This document shows, piece by piece, positions 47,312 to 64,000 of a DNA stretch of 64,000 nt. The notes below the pieces were generated by a model. The model did no database searches and had not been told where the DNA came from. It saw only the letters and a list, made by a program, of their open reading frames with translations. This DNA is from Francisellaceae bacterium UBA6186 (GTDB taxonomy: Bacteria > Pseudomonadota > Gammaproteobacteria > UBA6186 > Azoamicaceae), in contig DITK01000053.1 in the NCBI GenBank assembly GCA_002422785.1, positions 892 through 64,891 on the forward strand. Reading direction: 5' to 3'. Positions within the stretch are counted from its first letter, which is position 1; every line of letters begins with the position of its first letter. A program made the translations under genes and the position numbers.

Positions 47312-47339
47312 TTGACTAATAAAAAATATTTAGTATAGT
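47312..47339 (+). promoter_or_regulatory. Candidate sigma70 promoter upstream of the GHMP-kinase gene
   Basis: TTGACT (47312-47317), 16-nt spacer, TATAGT (47334-47339). GGAG lies about 8 nt upstream of ATG 47375. Confidence 0.4.
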
Positions 47340-47374
47340 GTGCACAATTGGATTGTTTTCTAATGGAGTAGTAT

Positions 47375-48250: not shown

Positions 48251-48353
48251 ATATTTAGCAAAGAAACTATCTGAATCAGAGACTTTCTGGTTAAAAAAAT
48301 TTGAGATGAAATTTGGTAATTATAGAATTTATAATGATATAAGGAATAAAAGT

Positions 48354-49328
48354 ATGAAAGGGATATATTTTTTCTGTTGCGACCCCAACAAAGATCCTGT
48401 TGCATCAGGAATATTTAATCAAGTTATTAACATGTATAATTTGCAAGAAACCACACATATTTTTGATAATCAGCCGGTATTAAAATATGTGGACTTAAAA
48501 GGTAATGAATTTTTGTTTGCCAAAACAGAGGAGGTATTAAGCCATAATTATATAAAATATTTATCACAATTAGAACAATTGAATGATAAATATGATTTTG
48601 CTGGTATTGTAAATTGGCACGAAGGCAAAAACGCTCCAAATCAAATTTTAACTGTGCATACTAATAGCGATGTTGCTAGTGGCAATTTTAGTACAGCTAA
48701 TCCATGGTTGAATAGAAATATCATTCAAGCTATTGAGAATAATAGGTTGTTAGCCGGGCTAAAAGAATTTTCAACTAAAACAGAGGCTACTCATTGGTCC
48801 GGAGTTACTTATCAACAGCCTGCAGAATTAATACCACAATTTACTGTACCTTTGGTTGATATAGAAATAGGTAGCTTACCAGATAGTTGGTCTCATCCTA
48901 TTGCTGCTGAAATTATTGCAACATCTTTAACTCAAGTGTTTGATAAAATTGATCAAGAAGAGGTTATGCCAATTTTGTATATTGGTGGAGAACATTTTGA
49001 TCAAGATCTTACCAATATTGCTATTAATGTGAATTTCCCATTTGCTTTTTGTCACCATTTACCTAATCAATGGTTTAAAGATTATGCCGCCAATCAAGAG
49101 GTGGGGTTTAAATATTTAACCAAATGTAAAGATAGTATTATAGGAGATCTGCGAGCTATATTTTATCATGACGGTATGAGCGGTCCGTTAAAAACTATGG
49201 TAAAGACATTTGCTGAGCAACATAATATACCAGTATTTAAGCATAAAGCATTAAGAGACCCTGATAAATTATTAAAAGAATTACTGAGCAGATCTGTGTC
49301 TGGGAGTCGTCCCAGGCCTCGTATATGA
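48354..49328 (+). CDS. Archaeal-type D-aminoacyl-tRNA deacylase (DtdA/DTD2)-like domain protein (track ORF starts at 48234)
   Basis: NWHEGKNAP..ILTVHTNSD, EATHWSG and VDIEIGSLPDSW resemble DTD2 motifs (ltvH.tGN, EaTHHGP, vEIGS...W) as I recall them. AGGAA lies upstream of ATG 48354. Confidence 0.45.
   Translation: MKGIYFFCCDPNKDPVASGIFNQVINMYNLQETTHIFDNQPVLKYVDLKGNEFLFAKTEEVLSHNYIKYLSQLEQLNDKYDFAGIVNWHEGKNAPNQILTVHTNSDVASGNFSTANPWLNRNIIQAIENNRLLAGLKEFSTKTEATHWSGVTYQQPAELIPQFTVPLVDIEIGSLPDSWSHPIAAEIIATSLTQVFDKIDQEEVMPILYIGGEHFDQDLTNIAINVNFPFAFCHHLPNQWFKDYAANQEVGFKYLTKCKDSIIGDLRAIFYHDGMSGPLKTMVKTFAEQHNIPVFKHKALRDPDKLLKELLSRSVSGSRPRPRI
49300..49315 (+). other. GC-rich hairpin at the 3' end of the DtdA-like ORF
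   Basis: CTGGGA-gtcg-TCCCAG is a perfect 6-bp stem in otherwise AT-rich DNA. It lies 13 nt before the stop and 23 nt before the next start codon. Confidence 0.4.
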
Positions 49329-49337
49329 ATAGCATAA

Positions 49338-50114
49338 ATGAAAATTTTAATTTTATGCTCAGACGGGCCACATAATAAATATTTAACTTATAGGATAAAT
49401 AAAGAGTTTCCAAATGTTATTACTATAGTAGAGATTTCTAATTTTAAAAAAAAGCGTTTGCTTCTTAAGCATAAATATAAAGATTATTTATATAATCTTT
49501 ATCATGATGTTAGAAGAAATTTAATAGGCCATAATAAGTATCGAGAAGATTTTTTTATTTCTAAAATACATGAACAAGGATGGAATAGAGACAACAAATA
49601 CCATATAGTCGATTGGGTAAATTCTGAACATGTAAGACAAATACTTTGCAATATTAATCCTGATATAACTATTGTTATGGGAACTTCGATAATTAAGCCT
49701 GATATATTAGATTTATTGGGTGCAAATGTAATAAATATTCATGGTGGGTATTTGCCTTATTATAAAGGAAATCATTGTTGTTTTTTTGCATTTTATAATA
49801 ATGAATTCGATAAGATTGGATCTACTATTCATTTTGTTAATAAATTTATAGATCAAGGTGATATCATAGATGTTGTTGTACCGGAAATCACAATCAATGA
49901 CAATGCAGAAACTTTGTATTGTAAGGCTGAATTAGCGGCGATAGAAAAACTTATTGTGTATATAAAAAATTATCAACTTGGTATAGATTTTCCTCGAATT
50001 CCGCAAAAAAATGTAGGAAAAATATATTATACTAGAGATCGTAAGATATACCACGAAATAATGTATTTCTTTAAAAGAAAAGGTTTGTTTAAATATTTAC
50101 AAAATATCGAATAA
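49338..50114 (+). CDS. Formyltransferase (Formyl_trans_N-type, single domain)
   Basis: INIHGGYLPYYKGNHCCFFAF (N.H.s.LP.yRG) and IDQGDII (D.G.i). Lacks the Fmt C-terminal tRNA-binding domain. Confidence 0.65.
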   Translation: MKILILCSDGPHNKYLTYRINKEFPNVITIVEISNFKKKRLLLKHKYKDYLYNLYHDVRRNLIGHNKYREDFFISKIHEQGWNRDNKYHIVDWVNSEHVRQILCNINPDITIVMGTSIIKPDILDLLGANVINIHGGYLPYYKGNHCCFFAFYNNEFDKIGSTIHFVNKFIDQGDIIDVVVPEITINDNAETLYCKAELAAIEKLIVYIKNYQLGIDFPRIPQKNVGKIYYTRDRKIYHEIMYFFKRKGLFKYLQNIE

Positions 50115-50130
50115 ATTAATTGCATAGCTG

Positions 50131-50994
50131 TCAACCTGGTTTTGTAGCAAAATAGGAATTGATATAAAGTCCAGAAATAATTAAGCAGGTTGCTACGATT
50201 TTCCACCAATCTAGGGTTTCATCTAATAGTAAAATTGAGCTAACCATGCCAAATATAGGCACTAACAAACAAAAAGGTGCTATGGTTGAAACCGGATATT
50301 TACTTAATAATATATTCCAAATATAAAATCCTAAAAAAGTCGCAATATAAGCAATATAAACAATAGCTAACATGGATATATAGTTATGTTGATAAAAACT
50401 ATTTATTATTTGTTCTGTTCCTTCAAAAATTATTGACATCAGCAATAGCAATGGCCAGGCAAATAATCCACCCCAGACAACTAAACCTATAAAATTACTA
50501 GTATTAAATTTTTTCGACATAATGCTGCCTGTTCCCCAAGCGGCGGCCGAAGTTAAGATTAGGACAAAACCAATTAAGGAAACATCTCCGCTTAAATTCA
50601 TACCAATTAAAATAATACCAAAAAAAGCAATTATGGAACCAATAATTTGCTGAATATTTATTGTTTCTTTTAAGAATATTATAGCAAGAAATATACTGAA
50701 AAATACTTGGACTTGAAATAACAATGAGGCAATACCTGCGGTTACCCCCATATTAATGCCTAAAAATAATAGTGCAAATTGTAATGCAAATGCAGTTATG
50801 CCATAAACTGCAATTAATTTGATAGGTACAGCTGGTGGTTTAATAAAGAAAATTGCTGGCATACTAACCAAAAAAAATCTTATAAAAGAAAACAGTAATG
50901 GTGGAATAAATTTAAGGCCAAATTTGATGACTACAAAATTAAATCCCCAAATAGCTGCTAATAAGATACTCATTATTAAATGTTGTATTTTCAT
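50131..50994 (-). CDS. DMT-superfamily transporter (two EamA domains)
   Basis: Ten predicted TM segments in two repeats. AAIWGFNFVVIK and AAAWGTGSIMSK are EamA-type motifs. Confidence 0.8.
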   Translation of the reverse strand: MKIQHLIMSILLAAIWGFNFVVIKFGLKFIPPLLFSFIRFFLVSMPAIFFIKPPAVPIKLIAVYGITAFALQFALLFLGINMGVTAGIASLLFQVQVFFSIFLAIIFLKETINIQQIIGSIIAFFGIILIGMNLSGDVSLIGFVLILTSAAAWGTGSIMSKKFNTSNFIGLVVWGGLFAWPLLLLMSIIFEGTEQIINSFYQHNYISMLAIVYIAYIATFLGFYIWNILLSKYPVSTIAPFCLLVPIFGMVSSILLLDETLDWWKIVATCLIISGLYINSYFATKPG

Positions 50995-51121
50995 AATTGC
51001 AATCCTTTATATTTATGTAATAAACTAATTTACAATCCTCAAATTAAATTTTTATGCAAAGTAAAAAAATTTGTGATTTAATATGCACCAAATGTTGTAT
51101 CAGCAGTATAAGGATATATGA

Positions 51122-52195
51122 ATGAATAGCCAAGCTATAGACTATACAAAATATTTAGATTTTAATTATTTATTTGCAACTTTTTCAGACTCAATTCTTT
51201 TACCTAAAATTATCCATCTTAATAACAATCTTTATGCTGCTGTATTTTCTATAATGAAATTATTGCCAGCCAAGTACATTATCTCTTCTGCTGTTAATAG
51301 AGGAGAGATTAAAGAAGGTTATACTATAGTAGATACTTCTAGTGGTACCTTTGCTTTAGGTATCGGGATTATTTGTGCAGAGCTTGGTTTTAGATTTAAG
51401 ATTTTTGGGGATCCGGCTATTGATCCCGTTTTAATTCAAAGACTAGAAGATTTAGGCGGCAGTATACATATAAGTACTAACCCTAAAAACCCAGGTGCTT
51501 ATCAGAAATTACGATTAGAAGCACTAAATACTTTTATTTCACAAAATACACTAAGTTACTGGATGAGGCAATACGATAATTTAGATAATTATAAATCTTA
51601 TGCAATTGTTGGAGAACTAATACTAAAAACTTTAGGTTCAATAGTTAATATTGTCGGTACTGTAGGTTCTGGCGGATCTACTGCTGGCATAATTAAGGCT
51701 ATTAGATTAAAAAATATTGATGCTAAATTAATTGGAGTTGATACGTTTAATAGTGTTTTATTTGGTCAGCCTGATGGTAAAAGAATATTAAGGGGACTTG
51801 GCAACTCTATTATGCCGAAAAATCTAAATCATAGTTGTTATGATGAAATTCATTGGGTGGCAGCAAACGATGCTTATTATTACACCAAATGGTTATTTAA
51901 AAACAAGTCCATTTTTTGCGGGCCAACTAGTGGTGCAGCATATCAAGTTGCTAATTATTTAGCAAAAAAAAATCCACAAGAAAAATATATATTTATTGCC
52001 CCAGATGAAGGTTATCGTTATCTTACTACAGTTTATAATGATATTTGGCTGAAGCAGCAAGAATTTTATAATACCAATATTACGGTAGAGCCAAGTTTAG
52101 TTGAGTCACCATTATATGCAAACAGTCCTTGGACATCTATTAATTGGAGCAGAAGAACTTATCAACAAGTATTAGGTAAAGAATTAAATGCATAG
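51122..52195 (+). CDS. Fold-type II PLP-dependent enzyme (cysteine synthase/CBS/SbnA-like)
   Basis: Candidate PLP-Lys in FSIMK. TSSGTFALGIG occupies the TSGNTG-loop position. Gly-rich phosphate loop GTVGSGGSTAGI. Confidence 0.65.
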   Translation: MNSQAIDYTKYLDFNYLFATFSDSILLPKIIHLNNNLYAAVFSIMKLLPAKYIISSAVNRGEIKEGYTIVDTSSGTFALGIGIICAELGFRFKIFGDPAIDPVLIQRLEDLGGSIHISTNPKNPGAYQKLRLEALNTFISQNTLSYWMRQYDNLDNYKSYAIVGELILKTLGSIVNIVGTVGSGGSTAGIIKAIRLKNIDAKLIGVDTFNSVLFGQPDGKRILRGLGNSIMPKNLNHSCYDEIHWVAANDAYYYTKWLFKNKSIFCGPTSGAAYQVANYLAKKNPQEKYIFIAPDEGYRYLTTVYNDIWLKQQEFYNTNITVEPSLVESPLYANSPWTSINWSRRTYQQVLGKELNA

Positions 52196-54878
52196 TAACT
52201 TTAAACAAAAAAACATTGCTTTTATAGAAAGCAATACTACTGGAACAGGAAGAAAATTTTTATTGGCAGCCAAAGATCATGGTCTTACACCAATTTTTAT
52301 TACCAGTAACCCTGGTAAATATAGCTTTTTAGCAGAAGAATTAATACAGCCGATTGTTTTAAATACTAATTCCAATCAAGATGTCTATCAATATTTAAAA
52401 AATATTAGCAATTTGCAAGCAATTTTTTCTACATCAGAATATTATATAGGATCGGCCTCTAGCTTAGCTAGGGATTTGGGGCTGTTATATAATAGCCCAG
52501 AGGCTATAAATCTTTGCAGAAATAAATATTTATTGGCAGGAAAATTAAGACAATATAATATAAATTGTCCTAAAACCATAAAAATTGATTCCGCCGAGCA
52601 AATAAATAGTATAGAAAATAATTTTTGTTTTCCTGTTGTAGTAAAGCCAGTCAAAGGATCTGGTAGTGTTGGGGTTAAATTATGCTTTAATAAACAAGAA
52701 GTTTTTGCACACGCAAAATTATTATTTAATGATGATAATTTAGAATCTCGTTGTGTGGTTATCCAAGAATATATTGCAGGAGAAGAATATTCGGTTGAAA
52801 CGCTAAGTTTTAACCAACAAATTAATATCATAGGAATAACGAAAAAATATTTAGGAGAGCCGCCTTTTTTCTTGGAAGTTGGCCACGATTTTCCTGCACA
52901 ATTATCCAAAGATCTTACAAAAAAAATAGAAGAATTAGTTTCAAATAGTTGCCACAAGTTAGGCTTGTTATGTGGCCCCGCTCATACTGAAATAAAAATT
53001 AAAAACGATATTCCTTATATTATAGAAATTAATCCTAGGCTTGCCGGAGGCATGATTCCAGAAATTATTAATCAGGCTACTGGTATTGATTTAATAACAC
53101 AAACTATAAATTTATTAATTGGAGAAAAAGTTAATTTAACTAAAAAAAATCAACAATTTTCAGCTATTCGTTTTATAGTGCCAAAGAATAATGGCACCAT
53201 TAAATCTATTAAATTAAACCATGACAAGCACAAATATCAATTAGTAGATTTTAAAATTAATAAACATATAAATGATGTTGTGGTTTTACGAGGAGACTTT
53301 AGAGATAGATTAGGGCATATTATTGTTAAAGCAGATACTTTGTATGCCTGTCAACAATTAGCCGAAAGATCTATCGGATCTGTATTATTAGAAATAGAAC
53401 CCAATCAAATTATAACAGAGCAAAATATCAACACTGGCAGATTAAAAGATGTGTTACTGCCAGAAATTCAAGAACTGATTAATAAAAACAATATTGTTGA
53501 TGATACTATTAAAGAATTAGAGATTTTAGCTGATATTGATGAAGCTCATATTATGATGTTACTTATAACTAATAACATTGATAGTAATAAAGCCAAGATG
53601 TTATTACAAGAAATAACAACTCTTAAAACTGACAACTTTGATCCTGTAAAAAATAATAATGCTCCTAGGGGTATATATTTATTGTATGAGAATTATTTGA
53701 TTCAAAAATTGGGTATTAATGTTGCTGGGGATGTGCATATAGCAAGATCTAGGAATGATATCAACGCTACCAAATTTAAATTGAATTTACGTGAGCGATT
53801 TATACACATTTACCAAAAAGTTTGGCAATTAAGATCCATATTAGTAAATTTATCGAAATCACATGTAAAAACATCTATACCAATTTATAGTCAGTATCAA
53901 ACAGCTTTACCAGGAACCTTGGGACATTATCTGCTGGGGATAGAAGCTGGTTTAACTAGAGAACAATCAGCATTACAAGCTATATATACTGATTTGGAAA
54001 TATCTCCTCTAGGGGCAGGAGCTGGAGGTGGAACTTCTTTTGCTATAAATCCAGAAATTACCGCAAAATTTTTAGGTTTTAGCTCTTGTGCCAGCAATTC
54101 TCTTGATGCCAGTGCTAGCCGCGATGTGTCACTTAGGATGTTATCTATATTATGTAGTTGCTCTATGTTATTAAGTAGGTTTGTTGAAGATTTACAATTA
54201 TGGTCGACTAATGAATTTAAATTGATTGAATTTCCTGATTATCTTTGTGGTGGTTCTTCTATGATGCCACAAAAAAAGAATCCATATTTATTAGAAAAAA
54301 TTAAAGGCATGTTATTATCTATGCCTGCAAATTATACTACTTGTTTATTAATCATGTATAAAGTACCCTTTGGCAATTCTTATGAAATCAGTACCGAATC
54401 ATTAAAACCTATAAACAAAGCATATGATGACTTTATTATAATTATTAATTTATTATCTATTATTATTAAAAACATTAATATTAAACATGAACATATTAAA
54501 AAAAATCAATTGGAAAATTTAACTACTGCGACTTATATAACAGATCTTCTGGTTAGGAATAAATACTGTAGCTTTAGGGAAGCTCACCATAAAATTGGAT
54601 CGATAATAAGAGATGCTTTAGATGCTGGCATAGATCCTCATGCGGCTATTTATGCCTTTTGCGATCCGATTATTAATAAATTAGATTTAGATCCTTTAAA
54701 TGTAGCCTTACAAATTGAATATGGTGGTGGCCCTGGGTTTAATTCCACTAGTAATCAATATTATCGAGCAATCGATAGATTGAATAAACACGGCGTATGG
54801 TTGACTAATAAAAAAAGGGAATTAGCTAATTGTTATTTATACAGAAAGAATAAAATTAAAGAAATTATTGCAGAATAA
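52188..54878 (+). CDS. Fusion protein: N-terminal ATP-grasp ligase domain plus C-terminal argininosuccinate-lyase-like (fumarase/aspartase superfamily) domain
   Basis: ATP-grasp: FPVVVKPVKGSGSVGVKLC, VIQEYIAGEEYSVE, IIEINPRLAGG. Lyase: HIARSRNDINAT, TALPGTLGHYLL, and the superfamily signature GSSMMPQKKNP at 54252-54284. Confidence 0.8.
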   Translation: MHSNFKQKNIAFIESNTTGTGRKFLLAAKDHGLTPIFITSNPGKYSFLAEELIQPIVLNTNSNQDVYQYLKNISNLQAIFSTSEYYIGSASSLARDLGLLYNSPEAINLCRNKYLLAGKLRQYNINCPKTIKIDSAEQINSIENNFCFPVVVKPVKGSGSVGVKLCFNKQEVFAHAKLLFNDDNLESRCVVIQEYIAGEEYSVETLSFNQQINIIGITKKYLGEPPFFLEVGHDFPAQLSKDLTKKIEELVSNSCHKLGLLCGPAHTEIKIKNDIPYIIEINPRLAGGMIPEIINQATGIDLITQTINLLIGEKVNLTKKNQQFSAIRFIVPKNNGTIKSIKLNHDKHKYQLVDFKINKHINDVVVLRGDFRDRLGHIIVKADTLYACQQLAERSIGSVLLEIEPNQIITEQNINTGRLKDVLLPEIQELINKNNIVDDTIKELEILADIDEAHIMMLLITNNIDSNKAKMLLQEITTLKTDNFDPVKNNNAPRGIYLLYENYLIQKLGINVAGDVHIARSRNDINATKFKLNLRERFIHIYQKVWQLRSILVNLSKSHVKTSIPIYSQYQTALPGTLGHYLLGIEAGLTREQSALQAIYTDLEISPLGAGAGGGTSFAINPEITAKFLGFSSCASNSLDASASRDVSLRMLSILCSCSMLLSRFVEDLQLWSTNEFKLIEFPDYLCGGSSMMPQKKNPYLLEKIKGMLLSMPANYTTCLLIMYKVPFGNSYEISTESLKPINKAYDDFIIIINLLSIIIKNINIKHEHIKKNQLENLTTATYITDLLVRNKYCSFREAHHKIGSIIRDALDAGIDPHAAIYAFCDPIINKLDLDPLNVALQIEYGGGPGFNSTSNQYYRAIDRLNKHGVWLTNKKRELANCYLYRKNKIKEIIAE

Positions 54879-54885
54879 TTTTATA

Positions 54886-56574
54886 TTAGTCTGTTGCTAT
54901 TTTAATAGCTTTACCTGAAAAACCAATTCCTATAGCACAAATATTAATAATTTTCCTAGATTGCAGCTCTGTAGTATATTTAGATTGTTTAATTTGCATT
55001 AATGCTGTCTGTGCAGCATGCTCTAATTTTGCTGGATCATTGATAACTTTAAATTCCATAACAATTCCAAGCTGCTTAGGATCTTTAGGAATAATTAACA
55101 AATCATAACGCCCATCGCCAGATTCTCTATTAGATCTAATTTCATGAGTGTCTTTCAACCCTGCCAAGATCCCTAACATTAATCCTTGATAAAATATTTC
55201 TTGTGTAGTTTTGCTAGTATCATGGTAACTTACCATCTCTGCTATAATATTTTGTAAATTTAGCTCAAATACTGCTACTTGCCCAGTAGTTAATGCGACT
55301 AATAATTCTTGATACCAAATTATTCCTCGACTACCAGATAACCATTCTATAAATATTTGTTTATATAAAAATTCTACTTCTTTGTTTGGGATCGCTAATT
55401 CACACAAATTACCGTATTCAGTAAAATTAGAAGATATTACTTTAAGATATCCTGACATTAAAAATAAACTCCAAATACCTGATCTATTTTTTTGCAAATC
55501 TAAAAATACTATGTGTTCATTAACTACTTCTGTAATGGCCTCCCCTGTAATTAATTTAGCAATTTTGTCTTGAGTATTTAATTCGGAAGTGAGCAATAGA
55601 TCTCTAATTAAATCATTACTGCTAGTATTAATCCAATATGGCTCTATTTTTCCTCTTTTTTTAATAAATTTAATAATAGACCACGGATTATAAATTGTTG
55701 TTCCACCAAAATTATAACCATTATACCATTCTTTGGTTTGGCTAGTGCTATTAGGCAATTTAGCCGTAATCAATAAATCACTAACCTCTGTTTCAGTAAA
55801 CCCAAAATAATCACAATAATTTTGATCTAACACCGAGTAAATTTCTACGTTGCTAAGGCCTGAGAATAAGCTCTCTTTTGATACTCTTAAAATTCCAGTT
55901 AAAATTGCTCTTTTAAAAAATCCATTGTCTTTTAATCCGCTACTAAGTAAATTCCTCATAAATGAGATTAATTCTTCATAGTAATTATGTGAGTATGATT
56001 CCTGAATTGGGGTGTCGTACTCATCAATTAATATAATAGCTGGCTGATTAGTTACTTTGTTAATAAATTTAGTTAATAATTTAATGCTTTCATCCCAACA
56101 AACTGGATCAGCTTTTTTTTCTAAAATCTTTTTAAACAAATCCCTCTCTTCTGGATCTAATTTTTCGCTATGTAATAAAAATCTATATTCTGAGTAAACA
56201 TTGGCTATTTGTACTTTGATATGTTCATAACAGGAATCAAAAGTTTTATACTTGGCGTCTTTTAGGGTAATAAAAATTACTGGGTATTGCCCCTGTTCTT
56301 GCATGCAAATCGTATCAGCAGCAATTTTTAGTTCATTAAACAAATCTTTAGTTAATTTGCCATTTACAGTGTTAGCAAAAAAATGCTGTAACATCGATAG
56401 ATTCAAAGTTTTACCAAAACGTCTTGGACGAGTTAAAACAATTACTGGTGTGCTATCACCTATAATTTCTTTGATTAACAAGGACTTATCAACATATAAA
56501 TATCCTTTGTTAGTAAGAGGGTTTTTATATGTAACTAAAGAGCTAAAATCACTAACACCTACGGGTAAATGCAT
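54886..56574 (-). CDS. AAA-ATPase-like domain / PD-(D/E)XK nuclease (DUF1703-type) protein
   Basis: N-terminus LPVGVSDFSSLV...YVDKSLLIKEII...VLTRPRRFGKTLNLSMLQHFF. C-terminus ESGDGRYDLLIIPKD...GIVMEFKV (E..GR.D...-..E.K nuclease core). Confidence 0.8.
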   Translation of the reverse strand: MHLPVGVSDFSSLVTYKNPLTNKGYLYVDKSLLIKEIIGDSTPVIVLTRPRRFGKTLNLSMLQHFFANTVNGKLTKDLFNELKIAADTICMQEQGQYPVIFITLKDAKYKTFDSCYEHIKVQIANVYSEYRFLLHSEKLDPEERDLFKKILEKKADPVCWDESIKLLTKFINKVTNQPAIILIDEYDTPIQESYSHNYYEELISFMRNLLSSGLKDNGFFKRAILTGILRVSKESLFSGLSNVEIYSVLDQNYCDYFGFTETEVSDLLITAKLPNSTSQTKEWYNGYNFGGTTIYNPWSIIKFIKKRGKIEPYWINTSSNDLIRDLLLTSELNTQDKIAKLITGEAITEVVNEHIVFLDLQKNRSGIWSLFLMSGYLKVISSNFTEYGNLCELAIPNKEVEFLYKQIFIEWLSGSRGIIWYQELLVALTTGQVAVFELNLQNIIAEMVSYHDTSKTTQEIFYQGLMLGILAGLKDTHEIRSNRESGDGRYDLLIIPKDPKQLGIVMEFKVINDPAKLEHAAQTALMQIKQSKYTTELQSRKIINICAIGIGFSGKAIKIATD

Positions 56575-56581
56575 AATTGGC

Positions 56582-56875
56582 CTAAATTTTATTGTTTATA
56601 ATACAAGCATATTTATGCAAAACACTAGCAATTAAGGTTTGATACGGCAAACCTTCGTAAACTGCCTTCTCTTTGATCTTTTCTAGATCTATTTTCGACA
56701 ACCTAATATTGATCCTAGCTTCTTTCTTAATATAACGACTAGCTGCCTTTTGAGCCAACTCTTTTTCTTTAGCTACATCAGGAATACTGATCGAATGTTT
56801 ATCATTTAGATTGTCTTCTAGATTTTTTTCATAAGAATCTAGCTTGTTTACTACAGTCTTCTTACGAACGCTCAT
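56582..56875 (-). CDS. Ribbon-helix-helix antitoxin, BrnA/CopG family
   Basis: LDSYEKNLE...KKEARINIRLSKIDLEKIKEKAVYEGLPYQTLIASVLHKYA matches the BrnA-type pattern (syE...kkd.rInIRls..DL..ik.kA.eeGiPYQTLisS.lHKY). GGAGGG RBS upstream. Confidence 0.6.
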   Translation of the reverse strand: MSVRKKTVVNKLDSYEKNLEDNLNDKHSISIPDVAKEKELAQKAASRYIKKEARINIRLSKIDLEKIKEKAVYEGLPYQTLIASVLHKYACIINNKI

Positions 56876-57151
56876 ACTCCACCCTCCATTAGCTAAATTT
56901 AGCCTATTGTGTGCCTTTTGTCAACCAAAGAATCTAGTGGGACTTGAGGTAACGTAAACAACTTAATTAACTGGATGAAATAATAGCAGATTTGTATACA
57001 GCCTATGATACAGTTGGTTTAAGCCAGGAGTTATTAAGTCAGGATACACTGTTATTGGCTGATTGTTTAATTTGCCGAAAAGCAATAGCTTCTGGGAAAA
57101 AAATTTATGAAGGCAAAGTTAATAATCCTCGAAAAATAGTAACATTAAAAA

Positions 57152-57637
57152 ATGAAAGTGATTATGTTAATAATAGACATTAAGAATCTTATAAAACAAG
57201 TATATAAATGTAACATTCACGAAGTCCCGTGTTTTGAGCCTTACATGACTTTTATCGAAGAAGGTAAAAAAACAATTGAAGGTAGAGTTGGAACTTCCTA
57301 TTATACAAAAATCAGATCAGGTAGTATTTTACGTCTACATAACAGAAAAAAAGAAATTTGGTGTGATGTTACACGTACACATGCCTATTCGACATTTAAA
57401 GATATGTTAGAAAAAGAAGGACTTAAAAACATGCTTCCTCAGGCAAAATCTATAGAAGAAGGGGTAAAAATATACAGAAAATTTCCAACTTTTGCTGAAA
57501 AAGAAAATAAGTTTGGAGCTTATGCTATAGAAGTTAAGTTTATTGACCTGGAAAAATTAAAACAAAAAGCTATTGTTATTACCTCTAAAGAAAAACGACC
57601 TCGCAAACAGAACGATGATTATGGACAAGATCGCTAA
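57152..57637 (+). CDS. ASCH (PUA-like) domain protein with basic C-terminal tail
   Basis: PYMTFIEEGKKTIEGRVG...IRSGSILRL...THAYSTFKDMLEKEGLKNMLPQAKSIEEGVKIYRKF...FGAYAIEVKF fits the ASCH pattern. Tail KEKRPRKQNDDYGQDR. The start is uncertain. Confidence 0.5.
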   Translation: MKVIMLIIDIKNLIKQVYKCNIHEVPCFEPYMTFIEEGKKTIEGRVGTSYYTKIRSGSILRLHNRKKEIWCDVTRTHAYSTFKDMLEKEGLKNMLPQAKSIEEGVKIYRKFPTFAEKENKFGAYAIEVKFIDLEKLKQKAIVITSKEKRPRKQNDDYGQDR

Positions 57638-57664
57638 GGTGCACACCCGATGCGAACCCCAAAA

Positions 57665-58429
57665 TCATATCCCAGCAAAATACTCTTGCTCCATGCCTAC
57701 TAAATTTTGAATAATATGCTTAGAAATACCTCGAATATTACGTAATTCAGAATGATTGTTATTAATTATTGCATCTTTAAAACCAGGCTCTAGCAATTTT
57801 AATTTACAATAAAATTTATCCCGTTTATTAGGAAAATTACTGCTATATTTTTGAGAACTACCACGCAAATAAACACATAAAACCCTAATATTTGGCACTT
57901 CGTGGATTAATTTACCAACCCCATAGGTAAAATTTTGGGTGTCAACCCTTCCTTCATGCCCCCTATGCCCTTCTGGAAATAACATAGTATATTCGCCTTT
58001 AAGCAACAAATATTTAGCTATTTTTATCGGTTGATTGTTAATTGTTTTAGGCGCACCTACATCAATAAAAATACATTTACCAATGTAACTAATAAATTTA
58101 TAGAAAAAATTTTTCTTCATATGCGTGGTTTTAGGGAAATTCCAAGCCATAGTATGAAAATTAATTAGATAATCTCGACAAGAACTAAATGCTAGAGTTA
58201 GCAATACAGAATCTATATAAGTTAAATGATTAGAGCAAATGAGCAATGGATCAGAAGTTTTTTCCATTATAGACTTAAATTGTTTACGGATCTCTTTAAT
58301 TTTTAATATACGATAGCTTTTAATTATAAATAAAAACCACCAATAACCCGAATAAAGCAAAGAAAACGCAACAAAACTTATAGCCCGCTGCAACAATAAC
58401 TTGGCTTTTATGGTCTTAGAAATACTCAT
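57665..58429 (-). CDS. PlsC-family (lysophospholipid/glycerolipid-type) acyltransferase
   Basis: N-terminal TM segment. HX4D block CSNHLTYIDS. FPEGHRG (FPEGtRs) block. Confidence 0.75.
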   Translation of the reverse strand: MSISKTIKAKLLLQRAISFVAFSLLYSGYWWFLFIIKSYRILKIKEIRKQFKSIMEKTSDPLLICSNHLTYIDSVLLTLAFSSCRDYLINFHTMAWNFPKTTHMKKNFFYKFISYIGKCIFIDVGAPKTINNQPIKIAKYLLLKGEYTMLFPEGHRGHEGRVDTQNFTYGVGKLIHEVPNIRVLCVYLRGSSQKYSSNFPNKRDKFYCKLKLLEPGFKDAIINNNHSELRNIRGISKHIIQNLVGMEQEYFAGI

Positions 58430-58469
58430 TTGACTCTAATGTTAGTTTAGCTCCGCTAATAAAATACTG

Positions 58470-58730
58470 TTAACTGATTTTTTGTTCAATAACAGCTATA
58501 GCATCCCCAATAGTACGAATTTTATCGGCTAAATCGTCGTCTATTGCTACATTAAATTTATCTTCAATGTCAATCACAATATCAACAAGCCTAGCAGAAT
58601 TTACGCCTAAATCTTCGATAAAACGTGTTTCTTTAGTAACATTTTTTACAGCATCATTTTTACAATAGGGCGTAATTATTTCTACTAAATCATTTAAAAT
58701 TACAGTAGTATCGACAGCATTAATCTCCAC
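58470..58730 (-). CDS. Acyl carrier protein (divergent, not the housekeeping AcpP)
   Basis: 86 aa. Phosphopantetheine site LGVNSARLVDIV (canonical LGaDSLd.VEL), acidic helix II/III. Confidence 0.75.
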   Translation of the reverse strand: MEINAVDTTVILNDLVEIITPYCKNDAVKNVTKETRFIEDLGVNSARLVDIVIDIEDKFNVAIDDDLADKIRTIGDAIAVIEQKIS

Positions 58731-58758
58731 AGTAGTCTCCTAAATTTTAAAATAAAAC

Positions 58759-60036
58759 TTATTTATCCCATCTTTTGAAAATCAAACAGGCATTAACATC
58801 TCCAAAACCAAAACTGGCTTTCGCCACAATATTCAAATCTATTTCTATGGTTTTCTGAACAATACTACCGGAAAATGGCTCCAGCTTAAAGTGAATATCT
58901 TCGCAATTTATTGAACCATGAACAAAGCCATTAGTTAATTGTAAAATAGACGCAACACATTCTATAGCACCAGCCGCCCCTAAAGTATGACCAATTAAAG
59001 ATTTAGTTGAATTAATAAGTGGAAATTCTTCTGGTTTGCAATTTAACGCAGTTTGCCAATTATTAATTTCTAAAGTATCCGCCATAGTTGCAGTTAAATG
59101 TCCATTAATTAAACTTATATCCCTAGTACTAATATTTGCCATATCAAGTGATTTTTGTATGCACCTAACCACACCAAATGGATTGGGTGCCGAAATACTG
59201 CCTCCATTTCTTTGGCCACCACAATTTACATGAGTTCCAATAATTTCAGCATAAATCTTTGCCCCCCGTGCCTCGGCACTGTCTAGACTCTCTACCATCA
59301 AAATACCGGCACCAGCACCAGGCACAAACCCAGAAGCCGTTGCACTCATCGGACGAGATCCTTTTTCTGGAGTATCATTAAAACCCCTAGCCAATACCCG
59401 CATCGCATCAAACGTAGCCCAAGTATATTGAGAAATGCCTTCTGTAGCTCCAGCTAAAATACGTTTAGCAAGACCTGCTTTTATAGCCCAAAAAGCATTA
59501 CTAATGGCCTCTGTTCCCGTACTACAAGCACAAGAATTGGTCGTAACCTGCCCGCCCAAACCAAGTAAACCACCAATATTGGCACTCGATGCACTCGACA
59601 TGGTTTGCTCCACCATAGTTGAACCTAGTCTTTTTACTTTTTTCTGATCAGTAAGTGGTACCACATATCCACCAATCGTTTCGCTACCACCCACCCCAGT
59701 TCCAATAATAGCTCCTGTATCCCAATCAGTAATATTGGAACTAGGATCAACAACTTTAAAACCAGCGTCTAACCAACAATCTATAGCCGCAATCGCTGCA
59801 AAAATCATGCTGCTATTCATAGCTATTAAAGCCTGTGAAGATAAATATTTTTGTTTTAAAACATCTATATTTTGCGGAATACCAGCTAACTGGCAAACAA
59901 AATTTAATTCTTGTAATAATTTAGAATGACGAATACCAGATATCCCTGTTCTTAATGCCGCCTCAAACGCCTCCAACCCATGGGCGTTCGGTGCTATAAC
60001 CCCAAGCCCAGTAATAACAACTCGATTAGATTTCAT
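58759..60036 (-). CDS. Beta-ketoacyl-ACP synthase, KAS I/II (FabB/FabF-like)
   Basis: VVITGLGVIAP. Active-site Cys in NSCACSTG. NDTPEKGSRP. His in INGHLTAT and STKSLIGHTLGAAG. FGFGDVNACLIF. Confidence 0.9.
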   Translation of the reverse strand: MKSNRVVITGLGVIAPNAHGLEAFEAALRTGISGIRHSKLLQELNFVCQLAGIPQNIDVLKQKYLSSQALIAMNSSMIFAAIAAIDCWLDAGFKVVDPSSNITDWDTGAIIGTGVGGSETIGGYVVPLTDQKKVKRLGSTMVEQTMSSASSANIGGLLGLGGQVTTNSCACSTGTEAISNAFWAIKAGLAKRILAGATEGISQYTWATFDAMRVLARGFNDTPEKGSRPMSATASGFVPGAGAGILMVESLDSAEARGAKIYAEIIGTHVNCGGQRNGGSISAPNPFGVVRCIQKSLDMANISTRDISLINGHLTATMADTLEINNWQTALNCKPEEFPLINSTKSLIGHTLGAAGAIECVASILQLTNGFVHGSINCEDIHFKLEPFSGSIVQKTIEIDLNIVAKASFGFGDVNACLIFKRWDK

Positions 60037-60494
60037 ACAGAAACTCCCATGCCAGACGCCAAAGCTGAAGCTAATATATTTTGATCTTGATCATACATTT
60101 CAATTTGTGCACGTAACTTCATTTTTCTCCAAAAAATTTTTTTTGCTTTTACTGTAATAGTATCTCCCGGGTATACTGATTTAAAAAATTCAACTTTTGC
60201 ATCCGTAAACATGGTTATCCAATTTTTGATTTGATCCGCCGGTAATGACATCGACAATAAATAAATGCCAAATGCTACCACCCCAATTTGACACATAGAT
60301 TCTAATAAAATAACCCCAGGAGTTATAGCTTTATCCGGGAAATGACCAGAATAAAAAAATTCATCTTTTTTAAAATTATAGGTTCCACAAATTTCGTTTT
60401 CATTAATATAAATAATTTGATCAATAAAACGAAATGGTTTTTGTTGCGGTATATAATGCAAAATTTCTGTTGGCGTTAATGCTATAGTTAACAT
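60033..60494 (-). CDS. FabZ-like hot-dog-fold 3-hydroxyacyl-ACP dehydratase
   Basis: IPQQKPFRFIDQI and FFYSGHFPDKAITPGVILLESMCQ (F..GHFP..P..PGVL..E...Q). Confidence 0.75.
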   Translation of the reverse strand: MLTIALTPTEILHYIPQQKPFRFIDQIIYINENEICGTYNFKKDEFFYSGHFPDKAITPGVILLESMCQIGVVAFGIYLLSMSLPADQIKNWITMFTDAKVEFFKSVYPGDTITVKAKKIFWRKMKLRAQIEMYDQDQNILASALASGMGVSV

Positions 60495-60531
60495 AAATTA
60501 TATTCTCTCGATCAATGTTTTTCGCAATTCG

Positions 60532-61131
60532 CTAGCTTTCAATTAAATTTCCCCCTACCGCATTATTATCTAAGTGAGGGTAATTACTATACTGTATCCC
60601 AGTAAATACTCCAACTCTAGCATCTTTTATAACATATATAGCCTGTCCGTCGACAAAAACATTGGCAGAACCAATAGCAATTGAAGATCCTGCCGATTTT
60701 CTTTGTACTAACCTTTTAATTTCTACCTCATATGTTACTAATTTATTGTGAGGACGAATTTGGCCAAAAAAATCTACCTCTTTGACGCCCAATGCTCTTC
60801 CCGCACCTTTCGCGCCACAGAGAGTAGCATAAAATCCTATCAATTGCCAAACCGCATCCACCCCTAAACAACCAGGCTGCACCGGATCGGCACGAAAATG
60901 ACACTGAAAAAACCAATCACTTAACGAAATATCCTGCTCTGCTACTATTTTACCTTTATTACCAATGCGTTCTATCTTAGTTACCCTATCAAACATCAAC
61001 ATCGGAGGAGCCGGAAGTATCCCACAACCTTCAAGTGGCGGATCCTTTACTAACGAACCCCACGCAAAAGCTAGCAATTCCTGTTTATTAAAAGAAGTTT
61101 TTTTTAAATAATCATCATACTTAATTTTCAT
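60532..61131 (-). CDS. fabA: 3-hydroxydecanoyl-ACP dehydratase/isomerase FabA
   Basis: LPAPPMLMFDRVTKI, WFFQCHFRADPVQPGCLGVDAVWQLIGFY, GRALGVKEVDFFGQ are collinear with E. coli FabA. Has a ~20-aa C-terminal extension. Confidence 0.9.
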   Translation of the reverse strand: MKIKYDDYLKKTSFNKQELLAFAWGSLVKDPPLEGCGILPAPPMLMFDRVTKIERIGNKGKIVAEQDISLSDWFFQCHFRADPVQPGCLGVDAVWQLIGFYATLCGAKGAGRALGVKEVDFFGQIRPHNKLVTYEVEIKRLVQRKSAGSSIAIGSANVFVDGQAIYVIKDARVGVFTGIQYSNYPHLDNNAVGGNLIES

Positions 61132-61137
61132 AAATGT

Positions 61138-62136
61138 TTATGTAACCTCGATAAGCATTCCGCCCCAAGTAAGGCCCGCCCCAACCACAACTAATACAAT
61201 TTGATCACCTGCCACAAAATTAGACCAATTTTGCGATAATACCGTAGGTGCACCAGCCGCCCCGCAATTACCAAACTGATCAACATTATATAAATGACGA
61301 TCTTCTGAAATTTCAGCCATTTTACAAATAGCACGTAACATCATGAGATTGGCCTGATGACCAATAAAATAATGTTTATTCTTTGCAACATTAGATTGTT
61401 TTCTAAAATGTTCAACAATTGCAACCATTTTTTTAATGGCAAATCTTTGTACTACTGGACCCTCTTGATAAAAATGTCCACCAGCCGGAACAGTTATGGT
61501 ATTGCAAGATGCTGGGTTAGAACCGATCATGATACTAGATATAAAAACATTCGATTTATGTTTTTTAGAAACAATTATAGCCGAGGCACCGTCACCTAAT
61601 AAAACTGCAACTTTTCTATCAGTAAAATCAACACAACGAGTCATATTTTCTGGTATAACTAACAAAATATAGTCAGGTAAACTCTCAGCATCCATTTGAT
61701 TAATAAAATTCATATGCACCGCAAACGTCGAGCATGCAGAATTAATATCAAAAGCCGGAGCATTAATACCTAATTCTGCCGCAATCATACAAGCCTCTGC
61801 AGGCAAAGAATACTGAGGTAAACAACCACCAGCAATAACCATGCCAATGTCTGTAATTGATAATTTAGCTTGCTGTAAAGCACCCTTAGCAGCCATCGCC
61901 CCCGTTTGGGCATTAGAAAATTCTATATGAGAGCCAGTGGTTAATGGAGATTTATTATACGTTTTATTAATATAGTCTAACGATAGTACCGTGCGTCTTT
62001 CTCTGATCCCAACTCTTTCCATAATCCACTCGTTACTAGTGCCTATGTTTAAATCAGTAAGAAATTGATTATCAATAATGTTTGTGGGGTGAAAATGTCC
62101 GATGCCGTGAATAAAAATCATAATGCTTTGTTTCAA
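61138..62136 (-). CDS. Beta-ketoacyl-ACP synthase III (FabH-like)
   Basis: Cys in INSACSTF, His in IGHQANLMM, Asn in FGNCGAAG. Thiolase-fold length. Confidence 0.85.
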   Translation of the reverse strand: MKQSIMIFIHGIGHFHPTNIIDNQFLTDLNIGTSNEWIMERVGIRERRTVLSLDYINKTYNKSPLTTGSHIEFSNAQTGAMAAKGALQQAKLSITDIGMVIAGGCLPQYSLPAEACMIAAELGINAPAFDINSACSTFAVHMNFINQMDAESLPDYILLVIPENMTRCVDFTDRKVAVLLGDGASAIIVSKKHKSNVFISSIMIGSNPASCNTITVPAGGHFYQEGPVVQRFAIKKMVAIVEHFRKQSNVAKNKHYFIGHQANLMMLRAICKMAEISEDRHLYNVDQFGNCGAAGAPTVLSQNWSNFVAGDQIVLVVVGAGLTWGGMLIEVT

Positions 62137-62350
62137 TATTTACTTATTTACATTTCTATTTTTATGATAATTAATACCATAGCTAAATTTTAATTAGCGA
62201 TATGTTAACAGTTCTTTAATTTTTAACAATGTAGTATTTTTAGTTTTGTCGCAAATTTTATTAATAATTTCAATGTCTTGTCAAAACCAATTAAAGTTAA
62301 ATTAACAACTAATACTATTTACCATAACAAGATTATTTAAAGTTAGATCG

Positions 62351-62953
62351 TCATAAAGTAGGTCTAGGTGATTGTATGTATATATTACTAATTTGTTGTT
62401 TACTAGCTAATAAAGCAGTTACTTGCTGCAACAGCAAATCAGCTTGCTCCACTAATTGTTTTGTTTTTACTAGTTTAGGAAAATCCTGCTCAATTTGTTG
62501 AGCATTGATCTGACTTGCGGCTAGATGAGATTGTAAAACATCGGATGTACTAATTAATGACATCTTCTTATCTTTTAAATAATTAATATCGTGCAGCAAT
62601 CTTTCTAAAGCGTGCTTAGCTTGCTCTGTGATTTGTTCACGTGCTTCTTTGTCATAAGCCGGATTATTAAGTATATCTGGATTATCTAACCATAGAGCCA
62701 TTTGTAACTGCCTGCTTAAATACTCACATAGATCTTCCGTTACACTATAAGAATTATTAAATGCTTGGATAGCTTGTTGTATTGCAAGATCTGGGTATGT
62801 TGTAAACCTATGCTGTAGTTTTTGAATAAGATCTTGTTGCATAGTTAATGTTCGTTGTTGCACAGCCGCAGTATCTATTCCTTGAAAATTGCCAAGGCCT
62901 AAATTAACTAATGTATTTAAACCTGAGATATCACTTTTTTTCATTACTTTCAT
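62351..62953 (-). CDS. Hypothetical Gln/Leu-rich coiled-coil protein
   Basis: 200-aa ORF with heptad-like Q/L-rich segments. No signal peptide and no catalytic motif recognised. Confidence 0.3.
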   Translation of the reverse strand: MKVMKKSDISGLNTLVNLGLGNFQGIDTAAVQQRTLTMQQDLIQKLQHRFTTYPDLAIQQAIQAFNNSYSVTEDLCEYLSRQLQMALWLDNPDILNNPAYDKEAREQITEQAKHALERLLHDINYLKDKKMSLISTSDVLQSHLAASQINAQQIEQDFPKLVKTKQLVEQADLLLQQVTALLASKQQISNIYIQSPRPTL

Positions 62954-63080
62954 CCTATCATGTTAAGCGCATATTCTTAATTGTCGATCAGTTATAATAA
63001 TCTTCAATTATCATTTTAATATTACTTTCTTAATACATTACCAACAAGAGAATTTTTTAAAATTAACAGTACTGTTTCAA

Positions 63081-64000
63081 TTATATAAATACCTTACTAA
63101 TAGTTTTAACATTTGTTACTGATTGAATATTTACACCGATAGATTTAAAAAATCCACGTAGTGGTGATCCTGGTCCTACCTCTACTATAGATTTAGTATG
63201 TTTAATAAAATTATCCATATTTTCTCGCCACTTTACACTACCACTTATTTGTTTAGTTAAATGATTAATTAACGTGCTAACTTGCATGTCAGGATAAAAA
63301 CCACCACTATAATTAGAAATAACCGAAGTTAAACTATCAGTATTAAATTGATCTTTAAATTGTAGCAAATAATCGTGGAAAATTGGTTCTATTTTTTGCA
63401 TATAACGTGAATGAAACGGTGATTTAGCCAACAAATATACAACTCGCATAGTTTGATCAAAAAATATTTTTTCTAATTGAACAATAGTTGCTTGCACGCA
63501 GCTTTTATATCCGCTCAAAACTACCTGTTGCTTAGAATTATCGTTAGCTATATCAACCCCAAAAGCACCAGCTATATTATTAATTTGTTCTAAAGGTATT
63601 GGATCCATAATTATGGCTGCCATGCTACCTTCTTCATCTTTAGCTACCACCGATTGCATAAGTTTGCCACGAAAATGTACAATTTTTACTGCTATATCAA
63701 AAGGTATTACCCCACTTGCTACCAATGCTGCATATTCACCTAACGAATGACCTGCAAAAAAAATCGGAGCAAATTTATAATATTTTTTTAATACCTCATA
63801 CGTAGCTATTTCTAGTGTCAGTATACACGGCTGAGTATATTCCGTACTATTTAATTTAATTTCGTTATTTTGACATATATCATACAAATCAAACTGCAAA
63901 ACATCACTAGCTATCGAAAATATATCCCTAGCTTCAGGATAAATTTCATTAAAATCTTTACCCATCCCTAAATGCTGAATACCCTGGCCGGGAAATACTA
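63081..64000 (-). CDS. fabD: Malonyl-CoA:ACP transacylase FabD (5' end runs off the window)
   Basis: GHSLGEYAAL nucleophile elbow. The reverse translation remains open to the window edge (..VFPGQGIQHLGMGKDF), so the true start lies beyond 64000. Confidence 0.9.
   Translation of the reverse strand, partial: VFPGQGIQHLGMGKDFNEIYPEARDIFSIASDVLQFDLYDICQNNEIKLNSTEYTQPCILTLEIATYEVLKKYYKFAPIFFAGHSLGEYAALVASGVIPFDIAVKIVHFRGKLMQSVVAKDEEGSMAAIIMDPIPLEQINNIAGAFGVDIANDNSKQQVVLSGYKSCVQATIVQLEKIFFDQTMRVVYLLAKSPFHSRYMQKIEPIFHDYLLQFKDQFNTDSLTSVISNYSGGFYPDMQVSTLINHLTKQISGSVKWRENMDNFIKHTKSIVEVGPGSPLRGFFKSIGVNIQSVTNVKTISKVFI

Follow-up and report, generated by a model that had tools for sequence, protein, structure and literature searches.

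The question raised by this locus is what a run of fatty acid synthesis genes with its own acyl carrier protein (ACP) and its own acyltransferase, and with no reductase, is for. The locus lies at the end of a 64,000-nucleotide stretch of DNA from Francisellaceae bacterium UBA6186 (GenBank assembly GCA_002422785.1, contig DITK01000053.1, positions 892 to 64,891); the whole stretch is called the window below. A preliminary description, made from the sequence alone, had taken the run for a dedicated type II fatty acid synthesis (FAS-II) operon that makes a specialised acyl chain, probably unsaturated or with a 3-hydroxy or 3-keto group left in it. Our analysis indicated that the run is probably a clade-specific copy, trimmed and rearranged, of an accessory FAS-II cassette of the Coxiella burnetii CBU_0034-0038 type that spreads horizontally, and the window's apparent oddity, its lack of reductases, was explained as lineage-specific trimming.

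A minus-strand FAS-II run without reductases

The genes of the cassette in the window are listed here. KAS denotes 3-ketoacyl-ACP synthase, and GPAT/LPLAT denotes glycerol-3-phosphate acyltransferase/lysophospholipid acyltransferase.

63081 to beyond 64000, minus strand: fabD-like malonyl-CoA:ACP transacylase (PF00698; TIGR00128 206 bits, below its cutoff of 261)
61138-62121, minus strand: KAS III (FabH-like) initiating enzyme, 327 aa (PF08545 and PF08541; NF006829 208 bits, below its cutoff of 249)
60532-61131, minus strand: FabA-type 3-hydroxyacyl-ACP dehydratase/trans-2 to cis-3 isomerase (NF003509 212 bits, above its cutoff of 124)
60033-60494, minus strand: FabZ/ApeI-like hot-dog dehydratase (PF07977; PF22818, ApeI-like, on an identical protein)
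58759-60036, minus strand: KAS I/II-like elongating condensing enzyme, of a subfamily distinct from FabB and FabF
58470-58730, minus strand: dedicated ACP, 86 aa (PF00550; DLGVNSARLVDI)
57665-58429, minus strand: membrane-anchored acyltransferase of predicted GPAT/LPLAT fold (PF01553 38.9 bits; N-terminal hydrophobic helix; NHLTYID, an HX4D motif; FPEGHR)
43715-44443, minus strand: cassette 4'-phosphopantetheinyl transferase (PPTase; PF01648)

Domain scans and the sequence itself agreed with the preliminary description on the minus-strand run from FabD to the acyltransferase, on its gene order and on its tight or overlapping junctions. The KAS III stop and the FabA start were separated by a 6-nt gap, and the FabZ-like and KAS genes shared a 4-nt overlap (ATGA). 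The true start of KAS III is most likely the ATG at 62121, which gives 327 aa as in the near-identical contigs, and not the TTG at 62136, since the fabD stop in one of these contigs (L001) overlaps an ATG that matches window position 62121. The fabD gene ran past the end of the window, so that about 10 N-terminal residues were missing (in-frame upstream residues ..VFPGQGIQHLGMG). In near-identical contigs fabD encoded 312 aa, and the GHSLGE, R and H motifs were readable in the window copy.

No FabG or FabI homologue had been noticed in the run, and this held for the whole 64 kb. When the reductases of related cassettes (ketoreductase, enoyl reductase and acyl-CoA dehydrogenase) were used as tblastn queries, no homologue of short-chain dehydrogenase/reductase (SDR), enoyl-reductase or acyl-CoA-dehydrogenase (ACAD) type was found in the window, with nothing below E = 0.08. 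Housekeeping fab genes were likewise found nowhere else in the 64-kb window.

A cassette family in over ten phyla

The 80 best KAS loci, one genome per species, were surveyed, and the loci of the relatives were mapped by tblastn with the window proteins and additional queries. KAS relatives at at least 52% identity occurred in over ten phyla. The taxa included Nitrospirales, Acidobacteriota, Cytophagia, Spirochaetes, Leptospirales, Syntrophales, Bdellovibrionota, Omnitrophota, Latescibacterota and several Gammaproteobacteria; the KAS of a Francisellaceae metagenome-assembled genome (MAG; L004) was 79% identical to that of the window, and those of Flavobacteriia were 52-57% identical. Across the 80 loci and C. 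burnetii, identities to the window were 52-79% for KAS, 48-78% for FabA and 30-76% for ACP (tblastn). The cassette order was (FabD)-(FabL-like SDR or ACAD)-KAS III-FabA-(FabG-like)-FabZ-like-KAS-ACP-acyltransferase-PPTase, with variable genes in parentheses. The part from KAS III to PPTase, with FabG left aside, was kept in Nitrospirales, Acidobacteriota, Spirochaetes, Leptospirales, Syntrophales, Bdellovibrionota, Omnitrophota and Gammaproteobacteria. The window carries KAS III, FabA, FabZ-like, KAS and ACP in this order on one strand and belongs to the family.

Reductases and PPTase were counted in the 32 loci that had both FabA and the acyltransferase and were fully covered, the window's species included. 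An enoyl-reductase-type gene (FabL-like or ACAD) was present in 30 of these and FabG in 18, while 12 had the enoyl reductase without FabG. Only two cassettes, that of the window's species and that of one Omnitrophota MAG, had no reductase at all. The reductases were a FabL-like SDR of about 312 aa, a FabG-like SDR of about 242 aa and, in Syntrophales, a protein of the acyl-CoA dehydrogenase family of about 399 aa; FabL-like and FabG-like are the best NCBIfam names of the SDRs, which scored below the cutoff for both. Judged from gene content, the enoyl-reductase gene is a frequent but not a universal feature of the cassette, and the ancestral chemistry appears to be a full reductive cycle plus FabA, since 30 of the 32 loci carry an enoyl-reductase-type gene and 18 carry FabG. 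Borrowing of the host FabG appears to be common in the family, because 12 cassettes have an enoyl reductase but no FabG. The PPTase lay directly 3' of the acyltransferase in 28 of the 32. The preliminary description had let the operon end in a PlsC-type acyltransferase; membership in PF01553 stood, but the unit as such continues with the PPTase in most relatives.

These counts bear on the idea that the reductase-free operon makes a 3-keto, 3-hydroxy or conjugated chain (NodF/NodE-like or polyene-like) and hands it to a lyso-lipid or aminolipid. For the window and its nearest relatives the idea has some appeal: homologues of the three reductase types are missing from the 64 kb and from within 10 kb of the cassette in two clade members (L089, L090), the FabZ-like gene falls in the ApeI-like hot-dog family, and the acyltransferase bears a clade-specific change in its block II, described below. 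However, the family to which the cassette belongs follows a normal reductive cycle by the above counts, and the 12 cassettes with an enoyl reductase alone indicate that a cassette ACP routinely works with host reductases. Moreover, the run has a single KAS gene with its catalytic C171 and no chain-length-factor partner, and no enzyme that would activate an aryl or other special starter. We thus consider an unreduced product unlikely. The absence of reductases, from which the preliminary description had argued for such a product, is better read as a trait of the gammaproteobacterial clade to which the window belongs, whose members must supply the missing activities in trans.

Members of the cassette have so far been annotated generically, as FabA/FabB or as '1-acyl-G3P acyltransferase'. 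What is new here is that the conserved unit includes a dedicated ACP, a PPTase and an acyltransferase, with the reductases optional, and that one clade has an altered acceptor-binding motif in the acyltransferase. The interest is higher for the cassette family as a whole than for this window.

Some cassettes had further neighbours. In Nitrospirales (L005, 118-5460) a 1780-aa fused biotin carboxylase/BCCP/carboxyltransferase (acetyl-CoA carboxylase) lay just upstream. In the Syntrophales cassette L034 (6028-7224, 13107-15296) a gene of the acyl-CoA dehydrogenase family, whose best NCBIfam match was acryloyl-CoA reductase, below cutoff, replaced the SDR reductase, and MlaE/MlaD-like genes followed downstream; MlaE/MlaD-like genes accompany the cassette in Syntrophus.

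Enzyme integrity and distance from housekeeping copies

The catalytic residues of the run were preserved. C171, H313 and H350 of the KAS were invariant in 28 homologues. The FabA His (in CHF) and Asp (in GxDAxWQL) aligned with His70 and Asp84 of E. coli FabA (1mka); a second FabA model, TIGR01749, gave 180 bits, below its cutoff of 238. The Cys/His/Asn triad of KAS III aligned with that of Aquifex FabH (2ebd). The FabZ-like protein had the His of GHFP and the Glu of LLES, and its nearest solved structures by sequence were FabZ-type dehydratases. The phosphopantetheine Ser of the ACP was invariant in 82 family members. The GVNSARL site, previously taken as a mark of divergence of this particular ACP, is not peculiar to it: DLxVNSARLVDI is the signature of the whole ACP family.

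All components except FabA fell well below the NCBIfam equivalog cutoffs for the housekeeping enzymes. The ACP scored 52.8 bits against AcpP (TIGR00517, cutoff 70.45), the KAS 273 against FabF (TIGR03150, cutoff 494), the KAS III 181 against FabH (TIGR00747, cutoff 292), and the FabD, read without its roughly 10 N-terminal residues, 206 as listed above. The KAS was about equally distant by sequence from solved FabB and FabF structures and is best placed in a subfamily of the KAS I/II superfamily separate from both. Two statements of the preliminary description were borne out here: the run is a dedicated FAS-II-like system and not the housekeeping set, and it has a carrier protein and an acyltransferase of its own, to which we can add its own PPTase and the membership of the acyltransferase in a small dedicated family.

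It might still be held that the cassette is the organism's sole set for FAS-II initiation and elongation, and hence housekeeping. The evidence from this genome is confined to the window, and the cassette is inherited vertically at a fixed locus under strong purifying selection, as shown in the next section; both would suit a housekeeping set. Against this stand the scores just given, and a PPTase of its own implies a carrier system separate from AcpS/AcpP. Furthermore, on either reading FabG and an enoyl reductase have to come from genes outside the window, and C. burnetii has both a canonical system and the cassette (PMC5423948). We give this reading little credence.

Inheritance and selection in the window's clade

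In a KAS tree built by neighbour-joining only, the window's species grouped with a sister species (L088, 88% KAS identity) and with the Francisellaceae MAG L004; three further clade members (L089, L090, L091) were recovered through the acyltransferase. These three shared the arrangement Peptidase_M48 ... Vut_1-TGT-FabD-KAS III-FabA-FabZ-like-KAS-ACP-acyltransferase-PPTase-(variable genes)-Tol-Pal-RuvAB, and throughout the clade the cassette stands behind Vut_1-TGT and is followed by variable genes and Tol-Pal. No SDR was found within 10 kb of the cassette in L089 and L090, and no enoyl-reductase-type gene in the cassettes of L004, L089 and L090. From this shared synteny and from the absence of an SDR within 10 kb, the clade's cassette appears to have been inherited vertically at a fixed locus, with both reductases ancestrally absent.

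Between the window and L088, the ratio of nonsynonymous to synonymous divergence (dN/dS) was 0.07-0.14 for seven cassette genes and 0.29 for the PPTase. The synonymous divergence (dS) was 1.0-1.25 for most cassette genes and 0.53 for the short ACP gene. These ratios show maintenance by selection; therefore, the cassette genes are kept functional by purifying selection and are not a remnant. A decaying remnant, with its reductase lost, insertions in it, its PPTase separated and its acyltransferase motif damaged, had some outward signs in its favour: an insertion between fabD and KAS III, about 13 kb between the acyltransferase and the PPTase, and the loss of the block II Arg. However, all open reading frames (ORFs) were intact with their catalytic residues, the low dN/dS was reached against a sister species at a dS of about 1, and the altered acyltransferase motif was stable in at least 17 sequences at 46-77% identity. 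Decay is the least probable of the explanations weighed here, and we regard it as very improbable.

The homologous operon of C. burnetii

The C. burnetii locus (L084) had the order KAS III-FabA-FabZ-like-KAS-ACP-PPTase, with a FabL-like reductase 1.3 kb downstream. The genes CBU_0034-CBU_0038 are orthologous to KAS III, FabA, FabZ-like, KAS and ACP of the window and stand in the same order; the KAS was 64% identical to that of the window and was the sister of the window's clade in the KAS tree. The two differ in that the C. burnetii PPTase follows the ACP directly, with neither a cassette-type acyltransferase nor fabD, whereas the window has fabD and the cassette acyltransferase and lacks the reductase.

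The Coxiella operon has already been read as a second, horizontally acquired FAS system. According to Moses et al. (2017), CBU_0034-0038 came by horizontal transfer from a delta-proteobacterial or spirochaete source, and they read the operon as adding unsaturated fatty acid synthesis to the vertically inherited CBU_0493-0497 (PMC5423948). The latter is the canonical fabH-fabD-fabG-acpP-fabF set, and the two coexist in C. burnetii (PMC5423948). A 2026 preprint likewise reports two FAS systems in Coxiella (bioRxiv 10.64898/2026.05.14.724635). Transposon insertions in CBU_0035 and CBU_0038, cited by Moses et al. (2017), lower intracellular growth (PMC5423948), so that the cassette is not only widespread but also affects the growth of C. 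burnetii in host cells. In our literature search for a characterised cassette product, only these two comparative-genomics papers on Coxiella were relevant; a type II polyketide synthase (PKS) review, a paper on lipid A evolution and one on ladderane genomics held nothing relevant to the cassette.

The published Coxiella view is in essence also that of an alternative offered in the preliminary description, namely that the run is simply a fabA-fabB unsaturated-fatty-acid operon with passengers. Half of this alternative holds. The FabA chemistry probably stands and matches that view, but the passengers do not: the ACP, the PPTase and the acyltransferase are conserved core.

Downstream of the Coxiella cassette (contig PPFR01000023.1, 7369-12847), the FabL-like reductase was accompanied by an HMG-CoA reductase, a PF01553 acyltransferase of 232 aa, a 563-aa FAD-linked oxidase (GlcD-like by NCBIfam) and a lysophosphatidic acid acyltransferase of the YihG family. 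This wider set of lipid genes may be relevant to where the product of the Coxiella cassette goes.

The cassette acyltransferase

The acyltransferase scored 38.9 bits against PF01553, above the gathering threshold of 23, and carried the HX4D and FPEGxR motifs of the superfamily. Its AlphaFold (AF2) model had a pLDDT of 87.7, and the fold matched squash GPAT (1k30, 1iuq), human GPAT1 (8e4y) and mycobacterial PatA (5f2z) with TMq 0.44-0.57. The model thus places the enzyme in the GPAT/LPLAT fold, and acceptors vary widely among the proteins of this fold. Searched by sequence, the PDB yielded no meaningful match to the acyltransferase, whose homologues carried generic annotation only. Among 1.84 billion representatives, a profile of 35 members retrieved 152 clusters, formed at 50% identity, when E<=1e-30 was required, and 307 at E<=1e-10; by these counts the cassette acyltransferase appears to be a small, sharply bounded subfamily of PF01553. 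It is not PlsC proper (TIGR00530 25.9 bits, cutoff 102.95; block II Arg replaced). The OlsA lyso-ornithine lipid O-acyltransferase was rejected as well (NF052553 17.9 bits, cutoff 300), and with it the OlsA/OlsB aminolipid pathway, as the domain scan saw no OlsB-type gene in the run.

The cassette family conserves NHLTxIDS in block I, CIPVxRGG in block II and FPEGxRS in block III; at least 90% of its members keep the block II Arg. GPAT motif studies give this Arg a part in binding the acceptor, glycerol phosphate, by its phosphate group. In block II, the window copy (..FIDVG..) and at least 16 further sequences, 46-77% identical (homologues P0280-P0304), had CIFI[D/N]xx without the Arg; in block III they had FPEGHR. 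Such a stable loss suggests a changed acceptor, or a changed binding mode, in the window's clade.

This raises the question of whether the cassette is a portable route to unsaturated fatty acids only or serves a distinct membrane lipid. A bolder reading would see in it a lipid-making module that moves horizontally among more than ten phyla, with an acyltransferase that installs the FabA-derived chain, and would have the window's freshwater clade re-tooled for a different lipid, because the enoyl reductase and the block II Arg were lost and block III was changed to FPEGHR. We hold this to be a tentative possibility, well behind the plainer one of a trimmed and rearranged accessory cassette.

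How the cassette might work

If the run is such an accessory cassette, its steps can be sketched, each assigned from family membership. The displaced PPTase (43715-44443) would turn the dedicated apo-ACP into holo-ACP, FabD would put malonate on it, KAS III would prime the chain from an acyl-CoA, and the KAS I/II-like enzyme would extend it. The FabZ-like enzyme and FabA would dehydrate, FabA also isomerising a mid-chain trans-2-enoyl to cis-3, and the FabB-like KAS would carry the cis-3 product forward to a cis-unsaturated chain. For keto- and enoyl-reduction the cassette would draw on FabG and FabI-type enzymes of the host cell, which is plausible because 12 cassettes already depend on host FabG. 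The acyltransferase of predicted GPAT/LPLAT fold would then esterify the finished acyl-ACP chain to a membrane-lipid acceptor, and this acceptor may differ in the window's clade from that of other cassettes, the block II Arg being gone.

The nearest model for these steps is the FabA/FabB pathway of E. coli. The window has a FabA orthologue above the equivalog cutoff with its His/Asp dyad, paired with a KAS of the Cys-His-His type. Whereas FabA and FabB of E. coli work with the housekeeping AcpP, the window unit has an ACP of its own and further adds a PPTase, FabD, KAS III, a second dehydratase and an acyltransferase.

Several points weigh against this account. The window KAS is no FabB equivalog (249 bits against NF005935, cutoff 630), and that it elongates cis-3-enoyl-ACP is assumed. 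The isomerase role of FabA is predicted from its family, activity not being readable from sequence. The housekeeping acpP, fabG, fabI and fabF of this organism are presumed from outside the window. With the block II Arg lost, acceptors of the glycerol-phosphate type may not be substrates of the acyltransferase at all. In addition, our literature search found no measured product for any cassette member, and Coxiella membranes are mainly branched-chain, so that the role of unsaturated fatty acids is unclear there (bioRxiv 10.64898/2026.05.14.724635).

Insertions and the displaced PPTase

The features that interrupt or separate the cassette in the window are given below.

62123-63093, minus strand: strain-variable 971-bp insertion between fabD and KAS III, carrying the orphan ORF
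62351-62953, minus strand: orphan ORF, Q/L-rich, 200 aa, without a family match
54885-57660, strand not assigned: strain-variable 2776-bp insertion with AAA-ATPase_like/PDDEXK_9, CopG-like and ASCH genes (Pfam)
54886-56574, minus strand: AAA-ATPase_like/PDDEXK_9 gene
56582-56875, minus strand: CopG-like gene
57152-57637, plus strand: ASCH gene
44465-54878, strand not assigned: DNA between acyltransferase and PPTase, with an MFS transporter, an HD_4 gene and then the ATP-grasp island, outside the cassette (Pfam)
46553-54878: seven-gene island with FkbM-type methyltransferase, GHMP kinase, tRNA_deacylase-like (PF04414), formyltransferase, EamA exporter, PALP, and ATP-grasp + Lyase_1 fusion

Compared with 99%-identical contigs (L001-L003), the window had two strain-specific insertions. 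The 971-bp insertion was absent from L001 and L002, where fabD overlaps the KAS III start directly; its GC content was 28.8%, compared with 35.6% for the cassette. Its 200-aa ORF matched nothing in Pfam, NCBIfam or PHROG. The preliminary description had placed fabD upstream behind a coiled-coil ORF; the order was right, but the separation is nothing more than this strain-variable insertion. The 2776-bp insertion was absent from L001. A search for target-site duplications or terminal inverted repeats around both insertions gave only AT-rich chance matches. A third related contig had another extra ORF, of 329 aa, between the PALP and EamA genes.

The PPTase, whose usual place is just after the acyltransferase, lay about 13 kb from it in the window. 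It was 45% identical to the PPTase behind the acyltransferase in L004 and also matched the PPTases of L005, L013 and C. burnetii. In the sister species L088 the cassette was uninterrupted, and the MFS, HD_4 and island genes lay after the PPTase in a different order. The MFS (44465-45883, plus strand) and HD_4 (45753-46496, minus strand) ORFs of the window are convergent and overlap by about 130 nt at their 3' ends, as they do in L088; the listed HD_4 ORF begins with a TTG at 46496.

The neighbouring ATP-grasp island

The island encodes, among others, an 896-aa fusion of ATP-grasp and Lyase_1 (argininosuccinate-lyase-like), and by its gene content it looks like a small-molecule, amino-acid-derived pathway. 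The preliminary description had sought the acceptor of the acyl chain in its product, and such a link would make an acylated amino-acid-type lipid. The two clusters are indeed neighbours in two species, the window's and L088, despite a differing arrangement, and in the window the acyltransferase lies on one side of the island and the PPTase on the other. This adjacency in two species is, however, the only point that speaks for a link. No island component was found near the cassette in the 80 genome loci, and no island within 10 kb of it in L089 and L090, which belong to the window's own clade and whose acyltransferases fall in the same sub-clade with the same block II change.

Conversely, the island occurred without the cassette in L086 (65% identity) and L087 (44%), and its fusion-protein family is widespread, being found also in rhizobial plasmids, Burkholderia pseudomallei, chlamydiae, Fluviispira and others. 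The dS of the island genes between the window and L088 was 0.40-0.51, about half the value of most cassette genes (1.0-1.25); this suggests that the island has a history of its own, and a more recent one. Moreover, the genes at the site behind the PPTase differ from lineage to lineage. The comparison of loci thus argues against an obligate functional link and for an independent island, and we judge it improbable that the cassette chain is attached to the island's product.

Comparison with other dedicated acyl-supply systems

Flavobacteriia clusters (L065, L070-L082) had a homologous FabZ-like-KAS-ACP-PPTase core (KAS 52-57% identical) in the same order, often with a FabL-like reductase. They differ from the window in having neither FabA nor a cassette acyltransferase; a DpgA-like type III PKS, a methyltransferase, a FAD oxidoreductase and an MMPL/HAE3 transporter lie alongside instead. 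The chain is presumably passed to the DpgA-like enzyme instead of an acyltransferase, an arrangement which we take to resemble the srs-type phenolic-lipid cluster. Because the Flavobacteriia pair the same core with a type III PKS, the comparison supports the view that this core is a dedicated acyl-supply module, which would deliver an acyl chain, bound to a carrier of its own, to one particular downstream enzyme. In one of these clusters (L065, 5067-14365) a REP-associated tyrosine transposase was inserted.

The rhizobial acpXL-fabZXL-fabF2XL-fabF1XL-lpxXL cluster, which makes a very-long-chain fatty acid, has a dedicated ACP, dehydratase, KAS and acyltransferase and borrows its reductases from the housekeeping FAS. 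LpxXL is an LpxL-type lipid A acyltransferase, and the cluster is without FabA, KAS III, FabD and PPTase. The logic is thus the same as in the window, but the protein families are others: the window acyltransferase matches PF01553. An AcpXL/LpxXL-type lipid A cluster was considered and rejected.

Aryl-polyene (Ape) clusters have a dedicated ACP and acyltransferases of the LPLAT family, and share with the window an ApeI-like hot-dog dehydratase (PF22818). The window run differs in having a true FabA and in lacking the ketosynthase/chain-length-factor pair, a ketoreductase, an aryl-activating ligase and LolA/MMPL export genes. An aryl-polyene cluster was rejected: there is only one KAS in the run, its Cys is intact, and neither an SDR nor an AMP-ligase is present.

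Other features of the window

The Rfam scan of 43-64 kb gave no match. The scan for promoters and terminators found 19 sites where 34 were expected and is uninformative in such AT-rich DNA; the best promoter hexamer pair, at 62284-62255 upstream of KAS III, is not evidence of function. The sequencing runs that contained the window sequence were DNA metagenomes only, from pond, freshwater, sediment and zooplankton samples.

The remainder of the window is ordinary Gram-negative chromosome, with a secretin together with type II secretion system (T2SS) E and F proteins, a sigma factor, PBP1, ZnuA, LptD-SurA and others. The secretin, a T2SS-E ATPase with a MshEN domain and a T2SS-F platform protein, followed by several small ORFs, occupy 913-6514. 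They are unrelated to the cassette and probably form an MSHA-type pilus or type II secretion cluster.

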